Notes under the pieces: generated by a model
The model's input: only the letters and a program-made list of their open reading frames with translations
Databases searched by the model: none
Told to the model about the DNA's origin: nothing
From: an uncultured Rhodobacterales bacterium
GTDB taxonomy: Bacteria; Pseudomonadota; Alphaproteobacteria; Rhodobacterales; CAZPXZ01
Length of the DNA: 61,021 bases
Direction of reading: 5' to 3'
NCBI GenBank assembly: GCA_964590405.1
Contig: CAZPXZ010000005.1
Coordinates: forward strand, 1-61,021
Program-made: the position numbers and the translations under genes
Shown here: positions 13,200-32,228 of the stretch, in pieces
Position numbering within the stretch: the stretch's first letter is position 1
Layout of the letters: every line of letters begins with the position of its first letter

Positions 13200-14233
13200 G
13201 TGAATGCACCGACCGAAGCCGCTTCTTCGAAGATCTCCTGCCGGGAGAATCATTCTCCTTCGGCCCGTACGAAATGACGGAAGAACGAATTATCGCCTTC
13301 GCACGCGCCTTCGATCCACAGCCGATGCATCTCGACCCGGTCGCCGGACATGCGTCGCCACTCGGCGGACTCGCGGCAAGCGGCTGGCACACCGCGTCCG
13401 TCCTGATGCGGCTTGTCTACGACAGCTGGCTCTGCAAATGCAGGAGTCTCGGCAGTCCCGGAATCGAAGGCACGGCTTGGCCCCGGGCCTTGATGGCCGG
13501 GGAATCGATCGAGGGAGAAGGCCGGCTGCTCGCAAAGCGGGTGTCGAGATCAAGACCGGATACGGGGCTCGTGCAAGTCGGGATTGCCATGCAGGACACA
13601 AGACACGGAACGGAGGTCCTGCGCGCAACCTGGTGGCTCATGCTGGAGCGCCGGTCGACAGAAGTCCCGGCGGTGTCCGAGATACCGGAGCGACGGCCTC
13701 CCGTTGATCGTTCGGACCCGCCACGGCGAAGTACGGCAGTAGCGCCAAGCTTGCAGATGCTGCATCTCGGGAGCGTCGAACCAGGGAAGCCCATTTATCT
13801 CGGGGAAACCTCGGCTAGCGAAAACGAAATGATCTCCTTCGCCCGTGCCTTCGATCCGCAGCCCTTCCACCTGGATCGGAAAGCCGGTGAAACCGGTATC
13901 TTGGGCGGACTTGCATCAAGCGGATGGCATACCTGCGCACTCTGGATGCGAACCAACGTACGGGCACGACAAGCGCTGCTTGCCGAATTGCCGGAAACGA
14001 AGCGCCAGCAACTGGAACACAGTGCAGCCATCGGACTCGGCTTCGAAGACCTCTCCTGGAACCGGCCCGTTCGTCCCGACAACCTGCTTCACGCGTTCAT
14101 CACGCCCCTAGACTCGAGAGAAAGCCGGTCGCGGCCAGACTGGGGAATTGCTCGCTGGCGAGCAGAAATGACCGATGACGACGAAAACCGGGTCCTTTGC
14201 TTCTACCCTTCGCTCCTGATGCGGAAACCCTGA
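13196..14233 (+). CDS. double MaoC-like (hot-dog fold) dehydratase
   Basis: 345 aa. Two internal repeats (FARAFDPQPMHLD..GGLAASGWHT and FARAFDPQPFHLD..GGLASSGWHT). The start overlaps the previous stop (ATGA). Confidence 0.8.
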   Translation: MSECTDRSRFFEDLLPGESFSFGPYEMTEERIIAFARAFDPQPMHLDPVAGHASPLGGLAASGWHTASVLMRLVYDSWLCKCRSLGSPGIEGTAWPRALMAGESIEGEGRLLAKRVSRSRPDTGLVQVGIAMQDTRHGTEVLRATWWLMLERRSTEVPAVSEIPERRPPVDRSDPPRRSTAVAPSLQMLHLGSVEPGKPIYLGETSASENEMISFARAFDPQPFHLDRKAGETGILGGLASSGWHTCALWMRTNVRARQALLAELPETKRQQLEHSAAIGLGFEDLSWNRPVRPDNLLHAFITPLDSRESRSRPDWGIARWRAEMTDDDENRVLCFYPSLLMRKP

Positions 14234-14294
14234 ACCCGAAATCGATCCAATCCGTCCGGAACGCCGGAAAGATCAGACACCATTGCAATGGAAA

Positions 14295-14584
14295 TGGTGG
14301 GCCCGGAAGGATTTGAACCTTCGACCTGCCGATTACGTCCCACTTCGGCTTGCGCCGCCCCCGCATGCGCGGAGTTCGTGGGCTGGACTATCCCTTCGCC
14401 GTATCCCGCAACGCGGAACGTAGGCGGGCGCCGTCTAGTCTCTACACCTTCCCCCTGTAGGGGCTTGGCTCGGGATTGCCCCGCCTGGACTGGGTTTCCC
14501 CGAATTTGACGCCTGTCCACCCGACGGTTTCCCGTCGGGGCTCCCATCTGAAAGTCGGTTGCTCTACCCCTGAGCTACGGGCCC
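14295..14584 (-). tRNA. tRNA-Lys(UUU), interrupted by an intron within the anticodon
   Basis: Exon 1 is 14551-14584 (GGGCCCGTAGCTCAGGGGTAGAGCAACCGACTTT). Exon 2 is 14295-14335 (TAATCGGCAGGTCGAAGGTTCAAATCCTTCCGGGCCCACCA). The joined exons form a 75-nt cloverleaf: acceptor GGGCCCG/CGGGCCC, D stem GCTC/GAGC, T stem GAAGG/CCTTC, anticodon stem ACCGA/TCGGC (one A.C mismatch) and loop CUUUUAA. CCA is encoded. Confidence 0.85.
14336..14550 (-). ncRNA. group I intron (IC3-like, Azoarcus tRNA-Ile intron type)
   Basis: 215 nt. The core blocks GUCAAAUUCGGGGAAACC and GAGCCAAGC...GAAGGUGUAGAGACUAGACGGCGCCCGCCUA are near-identical to my memory of the Azoarcus intron. Exon 1 ends in U, which can wobble-pair with the internal guide GGAG (intron nt 7-10). 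The intron ends in G. There is a P2-like hairpin CCCGACGG-GAAA-CCGUCGGG, a P7-like pairing GACUA/UAGUC, and a GCAA tetraloop in the 3' extension. Confidence 0.85.
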
Positions 14585-14922
14585 GGGCCCCGGATTCCAG
14601 ACGATCCGGGAGCGGCGGAAGCCTAGCCGAGTGCGTGCCCTGCGGCAAGCCCGGCACGCGGTGCGGTGACCGGAACGGAACGACCGGCCATACCCCAATC
14701 TGGAATTGCCGACCCTTTGCCTGTGAAGACTCCCGGGAAACAGGCCACCCAAGTCTCTCAGGATCCGTCTTCCGGGCGACTGACGGCGGAACGCCGCAAA
14801 CATGCCCCAATTGATGGGAGTCGTACTGCTATAGTCTCGGGTACGCGGCGCAACCACACGGAATCTTGCATTCCTGCATGTGCAGATTGCGCCAATTGCA
14901 TACCAGCCTCAGGAGAGTCGCC

Positions 14923-25529: not shown

Positions 25530-25604
25530 TGGCGCGCCCGACGGGAATCGAACCCGTTCCTCCGCCTTGAAAGGGCGACATCCTGACCGGTAGACGACGG
25601 GCGC
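25530..25604 (-). tRNA. tRNA-Glu(UUC)
   Basis: The reverse complement is GCGCCCGTCGTCTACCGGTCAGGATGTCGCCCTTTCAAGGCGGAGGAACGGGTTCGATTCCCGTCGGGCGCGCCA. Anticodon loop CUUUCAA. Acceptor GCGCCCG/CGGGCGC. Confidence 0.9.
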
Positions 25605-32154: not shown

Positions 32155-32228
32155 TGGTTGAGGCGGGTGGATTCGAACCACCGTTTCCGGAGTCAAAGTC
32201 CGGCGTCCTGCCGCTGGACGACGCCTCA
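32155..32228 (-). tRNA. tRNA-Gln(UUG)
   Basis: The reverse complement is TGAGGCGTCGTCCAGCGGCAGGACGCCGGACTTTGACTCCGGAAACGGTGGTTCGAATCCACCCGCCTCAACCA. Anticodon loop CUUUGAC. Confidence 0.9.

Follow-up and report, generated by a model that had tools for sequence, protein, structure and literature searches.

A tRNA-Lys(UUU) gene split within its anticodon by a 215-nt Lys.4Ug group I intron in an uncultured Rhodobacterales bacterium

In this study, we examined a stretch of 61,021 nucleotides (nt) from an uncultured Rhodobacterales bacterium (GenBank assembly GCA_964590405.1, contig CAZPXZ010000005.1; hereafter the window), in which the two halves of a tRNA-Lys(UUU) gene lie on the minus strand, separated by 215 nt. 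Very probably this is a functional tRNA-Lys(UUU) gene, interrupted by a group I intron without an open reading frame (ORF), of the Azoarcus or IC3 type and of the Lys.4Ug class, which is an old, vertically inherited resident of its lineage. The arrangement itself is already catalogued in a 2020 preprint, is present in dozens of other genomes and opens no new question. That preprint is the only source for the class, to which the window adds a lineage with good conservation, synteny and apparent vertical inheritance, and a compact 215-nt putative ribozyme with rich natural covariation on which the class could be tested.

Structure of the split gene

The anatomy, homology, covariation and conservation of the gene can be read directly from the aligned sequences. 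Its three parts are:

14551-14584, minus strand: 5' exon of tRNA-Lys(UUU), 34 nt, GGGCCCGUAGCUCAGGGGUAGAGCAACCGACUUU, called by ARAGORN on the joined exons; it holds the 5' strand of the acceptor stem, the D arm, the 5' strand of the anticodon stem and C32, U33, U34 and U35.
14336-14550, minus strand: group I intron, IC3-like, without an ORF, 215 nt, recognised by RF00028, covariation and likeness to Mpe6.Lys.4Ug; it opens CAGAUGGGAG with C at 14550 and closes GUGGGACG (...GGGACG) with the terminal (omega) G at 14336.
14295-14335, minus strand: 3' exon of tRNA-Lys(UUU), 41 nt, UAAUCGGCAGGUCGAAGGUUCAAAUCCUUCCGGGCCCACCA, ending in ACCA, supported by ARAGORN and covariation; it holds U36, A37 and A38, the 3' strand of the anticodon stem, the variable loop, the T arm, the 3' strand of the acceptor stem, the discriminator A and an encoded CCA.

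Spliced together, the exons are scored by ARAGORN as a 75-nt tRNA-Lys(ttt), with a 7-nt anticodon loop in which CUUU of the 5' exon meets UAA of the 3' exon, discriminator A73 and a 3' CCA. The break lies between U35 and U36, inside the anticodon, and joining restores the loop CUUUUAA. A first-pass annotation, made from the letters alone, had given coordinates and sequence for both halves and for the insert, and these are exact on re-reading of the sequence and by ARAGORN; it had placed the split between the same two nucleotides, as the rebuilt loop bears out, and had proposed scoring the joined exons as a tRNA, with the outcome just described.

The Rfam search proposed at the same time gave a match to RF00028 (Intron_gpI) at 14366-14561 on the minus strand, spanning the full model (1-253) with 47.4 bits (E = 6.8e-11 in a 701-nt search, 5.9e-9 in the whole window); it was obtained with permissive thresholds, not gathering thresholds. 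Guided by the Rfam alignment and the consensus of the seed alignment of Williams (2020, doi 10.1101/2020.01.27.920355), we drew the structure by hand. Helices P1 to P9 can all be drawn, and all 67 proposed intron pairs are standard pairs in the window.

Homologues came from a single scan of a species-representative genome collection, with a pattern composed of the exon end, the guide and the P3-P4 strand. Among the 39 loci returned, 22 are complete tRNA-Lys(UUU) genes split at the same point (GACUUU, an insert ending in G, then UAAUC) and a further one is truncated where its contig ends; of the rest, 15 were discarded as chance matches in coding DNA and one as a tRNA-Leu(UAA) intron. The alignment used below (A2) comprises the window and the 22 complete pre-tRNAs (n = 23). 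In the order of the transcript, the elements of the intron are:

14541-14554, minus strand: P1, exon C32-U35 and intron C1 against intron G6-G10 (CUUUC/GGGAG), with loop AGAU.
14520-14539, minus strand: P2 hairpin, 8 base pairs, CCCGACGG/CCGUCGGG, with a GAAA tetraloop (L2); 7 of 8 pairs change on both sides.
14508-14513, minus strand: P3 5' strand GGCGUC, paired with 14427-14432; 4 of 6 pairs compensatory, 100% of cells paired.
14446-14503, minus strand: P4-P5-P6-P6a domain, with J4/5 AAA and J5/4 CAA; P4 (UCGGGG/UCCCGA) near-invariant and 100% paired, P5, P6 and P6a supported.
14436-14442, minus strand: P7 5' strand, G, a bulged A, then GACUA, paired with 14385-14390; 100% of cells paired, 2 of 6 pairs compensatory.
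14427-14432, minus strand: P3 3' strand GGCGCC, from the pair list and covariation.
14397-14426, minus strand: P8 stem-loop with base CCUACG/UACGG; 8 of 11 pairs compensatory.
14385-14390, minus strand: P7 3' strand UAGUCC, preceded by J8/7 AAGGGA at 14391-14396.
14339-14382, minus strand: P9 with the inner hairpins P9a (loop GCAU) and P9b (GCAA tetraloop); 3 of 5, 5 of 6 and 4 of 4 pairs compensatory, respectively; it is followed by A-C-G, the last G being the omega G.

Over the alignment this structure is paired in 93.8% of cells, as compared with 34-49% when partners are slid by 1-3 columns. Changes on both sides are seen in 47 of 88 pairs, and none of 500 shuffles reaches any of the observed measures. 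Compensatory changes are most abundant in P2, P3, P8, P9, P9a and P9b and in the acceptor and T stems of the tRNA, while the acceptor, D and anticodon stems are paired in 95-100% of cells, again with compensatory changes, and A73 is invariant. Across the 23 species P4 and most of P7 show little or no variation, and the same holds for the core strands J3/4, P4, J6/7, P7 and J8/7. At the boundaries, all 23 sequences have U immediately upstream of the 5' splice site and G as the final nucleotide of the intron; U35 (14551), at the splice site, pairs with G7 (14544) as a U·G wobble, which is kept in 22 of them. That differences between species take the form of compensatory pairs points to selection on the fold.

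P7, the guanosine-binding helix of group I introns, crosses P3 and forms a pseudoknot. As expected of a pseudoknotted ribozyme, thermodynamic folding of the intron by itself finds local hairpins only (P2, P6a, distal P8, P9a and P9b; z = -2.2), and we did not use the fold as evidence for the core. GISSD files bacterial tRNA introns under subgroup IC3, and IC3-type traits are visible here as well, namely P2 with GAAA, P9b with GCAA, a simple P5 hairpin and a receptor-like P8; the intron also aligns with IC3 seeds, the subgroup being read from sequence and the tertiary contacts inferred.

The features that the first-pass annotation had taken as hallmarks of such an intron are largely recovered. 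The U opposite a guide, the terminal G and the GAAA hairpin of P2 are all seen in the alignment and the pair list, and two core blocks, said to be almost those of the Azoarcus tRNA-Ile intron, agree with it at 17 of 18 and 29 of 31 bases in the seed alignment (Williams 2020). The internal guide does pair with the exon end and does place a U·G at the splice site, but it reads GGGAG, not GGAG.

Proposed splicing

Splicing would follow the established steps of group I chemistry. The minus strand would be transcribed into a precursor of about 290 nt, in which the guide GGGAG would pair with exon CUUU to form P1, with U35 held in the U·G wobble. A free guanosine bound in P7 would attack after U35. 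The terminal G (14336) would then occupy the same guanosine site, and the freed 3'-OH of U35 would attack after it, so that ...GACUUU is ligated to UAAUCGG... and the loop CUUUUAA is rebuilt. By analogy with the Azoarcus intron, P8 and P5 are the probable docking sites of two loops, GAAA in P2 and GCAA in P9b, whose contacts would clamp the fold. The base of P8 (CCUACG/UACGG) may be a variant of the 11-nt tetraloop receptor, canonically CCUAAG/UAUGG.

Evidence for and against a functional gene

Several observations weigh against a working gene of this kind. First, the cloverleaf is not perfect, as had been claimed: the 75-nt tRNA-Lys fold stands, but the top pair of its anticodon stem (27-43; 14559 with 14328) is an A·C mismatch. 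Second, a sigma-70-like promoter was sought upstream of the split gene and none was found. Third, P10 is weak, with about two pairs (G6·U36 and U5-A37), and P1 holds two adjacent U·G wobbles (U34·G8 and U35·G7), so that P1 by itself leaves the position of the 5' cut formally ambiguous; what fixes the site is the need for a terminal G and a 7-nt loop. Fourth, the RF00028 score falls short of the curated gathering score (50) by 2.6 bits. Finally, the literature searched yielded neither a peer-reviewed description nor a splicing assay of a group I intron in a tRNA-Lys.

The sub-threshold score would also fit an intron that is a decayed, non-splicing relic in a dead gene, with tRNA-Lys(UUU) supplied by another copy. 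We consider this very improbable. The core helices are all intact, the catalytic-core strands are invariant or nearly so across 23 species, and the changes between species are compensatory; moreover, the exons are 99-100% identical in relatives whose neighbouring MaoC-type protein is only 54-63% identical. The score itself is what would be expected of bacterial introns, because the Rfam seed used by Williams held none of them, and matches were accepted in that study down to about 18-20 bits (Williams 2020).

As to the A·C at 27-43, it is common to the window and its close relatives (signature AACCGACUUUUAAUCGGC), and distant Lys.4Ug hosts have A-U or G-C.

Isotype of the tRNA

Run in intron mode (-i), ARAGORN calls the region tRNA-Thr(tgt) with a 215-nt intron, as it does for many homologues. 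Such a tRNA-Thr(UGU), with its intron one base further 5' (CUU, an intron beginning with u and ending with c, then GUAA), would restore a 7-nt loop too, yet we find it hardly credible. The last base of its intron would be C here and any of the four bases in the homologues, not the G that group I chemistry requires, whereas the Lys reading gives G in 23 of 23. Four other loci with the split gene (L042, L045, L052 and L053) also have, on the same contigs, uninterrupted tRNA-Thr(UGU) genes that begin with G1-C2. These Thr genes share just 59-70% identity with the split gene, whose 2-71 pair varies freely (GC, GU, AU, CG), as opposed to their C2-G71. A true split tRNA-Thr(UGU), that of Tritonibacter mobilis, has G1-C2 and its intron after U36. 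Further, the pipeline of Williams, with tRNAscan-SE isotype models, filed the Neomegalonema gene discussed below (L018) as Lys (Williams 2020, doi 10.1101/2020.01.27.920355). On the terminal-G rule, the ordinary Thr genes on the same contigs and the Thr.5Ug gene of T. mobilis, the Thr identity was rejected, and we retain tRNA-Lys(UUU).

The behaviour of ARAGORN in this mode is instructive in itself. It finds genes split by group I introns but sets their boundaries regardless of the rule of U at -1 and terminal G, and across the window and sister loci it labels the same Lys gene family Thr, Glu, Arg, SeC or Ile. Given these mixed labels, the intron-mode isotype is unreliable and was rejected as a source of isotype. 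Isotyping by BLAST was likewise abandoned: the spliced tRNA, compared with annotated phage and Escherichia coli tRNAs, matched Lys, Ile, Met and Arg at 76-83% identity and did not discriminate.

The T. mobilis gene (strain F1926, NZ_CP015231.1, a 1.26-Mb replicon; L076, about 1420-1747) carries after U36 an intron of the Thr.5Ug class of Williams, about 70% identical to that of the window. As a cultured member of the Rhodobacterales, this organism could be an experimentally tractable relative.

Relation to known introns

The first-pass annotation had suggested that tRNA-Lys(UUU) might be an undescribed host or insertion site and had advised a check of the literature for Lys-tRNA hosts. Such hosts have been described. 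Williams widened the four classical hosts to 21 settings, and the seed alignment of that work holds Mpe6.Lys.4Ug, in the same tRNA at the same site, together with Lys.3Ug and Lys.2Ug (Williams 2020, doi 10.1101/2020.01.27.920355). Mpe6 is Meganema (now Neomegalonema) perideroedes, whose DSM 15528 genome was recovered in our scan (L018) with identical sequence, and the same arrangement occurs in 21 other complete species-level genomes. The window intron is thus a further member of the Lys.4Ug class, and neither host nor site is new: the host is tRNA-Lys, the intron follows the fourth loop nucleotide, U stands at -1 and G at omega (CUUU, intron from c to g, UAA). A 2017 claim of inserts of 22-49 nt was rejected as prior art, since RNAs of that length cannot be group I ribozymes.

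Among the 13 seeds compared, Mpe6.Lys.4Ug is the closest, at 75-78% identity, with 41-71% for the other 12. It shares with the window intron the guide (U)GGGAG, the set of helices, a P2 with GAAA and a P9 with two inner hairpins, the second GNRA-capped, and the L018 sequence aligns throughout with the window. The two differ in host, Neomegalonema as opposed to uncultured Rhodobacterales-like metagenome-assembled genomes (MAGs), and in length (232 nt versus 215 nt), with smaller P5, P6a and P8 loops in the window. They also differ in P7 (GGCCA/UGGUC versus GACUA/UAGUC in the window) and in L9b (GAAA versus GCAA).

The tRNA-Ile(CAU) intron of Azoarcus sp. BH72 (IC3; Aol6.Ile2.5Ug) resembles that of the window in being compact, ORF-less and placed in the anticodon loop, in the organisation of its P3-P8 core, in the GAAA on P2 and in a receptor-like P8 motif. 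In contrast, it resides in another tRNA, at a site after U36 of CAU (position 5), is 62-63% identical over alignable columns, has a single short P9 hairpin where the window has a branched P9 of two hairpins, and carries the canonical receptor CCUAAG/UAUGG instead of CCUACG/UACGG.

The classic intron inside a bacterial tRNA anticodon is that of tRNA-Leu(UAA), in the sole gene for that tRNA. This intron (Leu.3Ug), found in cyanobacteria, plastids and some Proteobacteria, likewise breaks the anticodon, between U34 and A35, and its Ncf2 seed is 68-71% identical to the window intron, but host tRNA, guide and splice position are different. Experimental work exists on this intron, whereas none on Lys.4Ug was found in the literature searched. 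The other two Lys classes, represented by Mle24.Lys.3Ug and Dba165.Lys.2Ug, share the host tRNA-Lys and a place in the anticodon loop but are inserted one and two positions further 5', respectively; with much lower sequence identity to the window intron (54% and 41%), they are separate invasions.

Genomic neighbourhood and history

In the window the gene order is enoyl-CoA hydratase (ECH), FAD-linked oxidase, MaoC-type dehydratase, the split tRNA on the opposite strand, and TldD/PmbA. The MaoC protein has few close relatives. In five of six relatives' contigs examined (L068, L069, L070, L071 and L073) a split tRNA-Lys directly follows the MaoC gene on the opposite strand. L015, L008 and L004 likewise have MaoC-type matches next to the split gene, and in L037 the ECH and FAD-oxidase genes are present upstream, as in the window. 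In the sixth contig (L072, 5038-6000) no tRNA follows the MaoC gene, whose product is 47% identical; a DruA/Tn5-like transposase gene lies nearby, so this locus may be rearranged.

Identity of the intron to that of the window declines together with that of the MaoC protein, being 93% where MaoC is 83% identical, 86-87% at 54-63% and 75% at 45%, and the exons are 92-100% identical across the compared relatives. This parallel divergence is what vertical inheritance under selection for both tRNA and ribozyme would produce, and it speaks against a dead gene. It suggests that the intron is an old, vertically inherited resident of the gene in the clade of the window, whose MAGs are filed as Rhodobacterales. 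An intron-less allele was not found at the orthologous site in syntenic loci; the exact 28-nt signature of an uninterrupted anticodon arm had 0 matches in metagenome contigs of the Joint Genome Institute (JGI), a collection without this clade, and because the clade's interrupted form is absent there as well, this zero says nothing about the intron-less one.

Alternatively, the intron could be a recent horizontal arrival, by reverse splicing or homing. Lys.4Ug has scattered hosts (Alpha- and Gammaproteobacteria, one Mycobacteriales MAG and one Bacteroidota MAG), a pattern suggestive of some large-scale lateral movement or else of mis-binning, and sister intron classes sit in other tRNAs. For the window, however, a recent arrival is improbable, as all syntenic loci examined except L072 carry the intron, its divergence follows that of the host protein, and its 215 nt hold no homing endonuclease gene.

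Beyond the split gene, the only RNA genes detected in the whole window are two uninterrupted ones, tRNA-Glu(UUC) at 25530-25604 and tRNA-Gln(UUG) at 32155-32228, both on the minus strand. No tandem repeats were found anywhere in the window. One further element touches the gene:

14278-14299, minus strand: terminator-like hairpin overlapping the CCA end, followed by UCUGAUCUUU; a weak candidate, with 1 site versus 0.9 expected by chance.

Occurrence in other genomes

The carriers recovered by the genome scan are mostly Alphaproteobacteria, namely Rhodobacterales, Neomegalonema, Sphingobium, Parasphingorhabdus, Rhodospirillales, Defluviicoccus and Hyphomicrobiales, joined by a few Gammaproteobacteria, one Mycobacteriales MAG (L009) and one Owenweeksia (Bacteroidota) MAG (L038). 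Either the intron-bearing gene has spread laterally to these last two, which are far from the alphaproteobacterial bulk, or the MAGs were wrongly binned. A scan of JGI metagenome contigs returned 22 more complete cases.

Implications for AAA decoding

AAA makes up 12 of the 48 lysine codons in six flanking genes and, at a quarter of lysine codons, requires a tRNA with a UUU anticodon. No uninterrupted tRNA-Lys gene was found in the window or in the retrieved loci, which cover small parts of genomes. Whether the split gene is the only tRNA-Lys(UUU) gene of the whole uncultured Rhodobacterales-like clade is, in our judgement, evenly balanced. If it is, AAA decoding would have depended on ribozyme self-splicing throughout the divergence of the clade, and the Lys.4Ug intron would be an essential, possibly guanosine- or Mg2+-sensitive, step in tRNA supply.

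Annotation of split tRNA genes

That standard finders would miss this gene, as the first-pass annotation foresaw, is borne out. Default ARAGORN and Rfam at gathering thresholds report nothing at 14295-14584, their only hits in the whole window being the tRNA-Glu and tRNA-Gln genes, and according to the tRNAscan-SE 2.0 paper that program was not built to find group I introns in tRNAs; a parallel tRNA-Leu case, described below, is likewise unannotated. With finders and curated-threshold Rfam silent, genomes of the clade would seem to have no AAA-reading tRNA.

Public gene calls of two sister contigs place Pfam-less proteins in this DNA, one of 206 amino acids (L068, 4200-4820, minus strand) from an ORF that overlaps the split tRNA-Lys, and one of 173 amino acids (L069, 5240-5761, minus strand) from an ORF that starts just past the tRNA. 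Both are probably spurious calls in unannotated, high-GC, RNA-coding DNA. The window has ORFs of the same kind at 14203-14547 and 14442-14810, both on the minus strand.

The tRNA-Leu(UAA) parallel concerns a complete gene split at the classical site by a 213-nt group I intron that ends in g and separates CUU from AAAA. It is found at L074 2886-3184 (pCTX-M3, NC_004464.2 61823-62121) and also in L075; its intron matches Rfam Intron_gpI with 36.8 bits, and ARAGORN scores the joined exons as tRNA-Leu(taa). Related sequence occurs in 1262 plasmids of PLSDB, whose table is without RNA genes, from Escherichia, Klebsiella, Salmonella, Acinetobacter and others, and copies of the 299-nt gene with at least 99% identity are present in 657 records, which come from 636 of 5426 complete E. 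coli genomes. Among the E. coli RefSeq records listed, NCBI annotation shows no feature under the split tRNA-Leu, and no paper naming tmrB together with a group I intron was found in the literature searched. The gene sits in the widespread resistance module of aac(3)-IId, truncated tmrB and ISCfr1, bounded by IS26, and might mark the donor lineage of that module.

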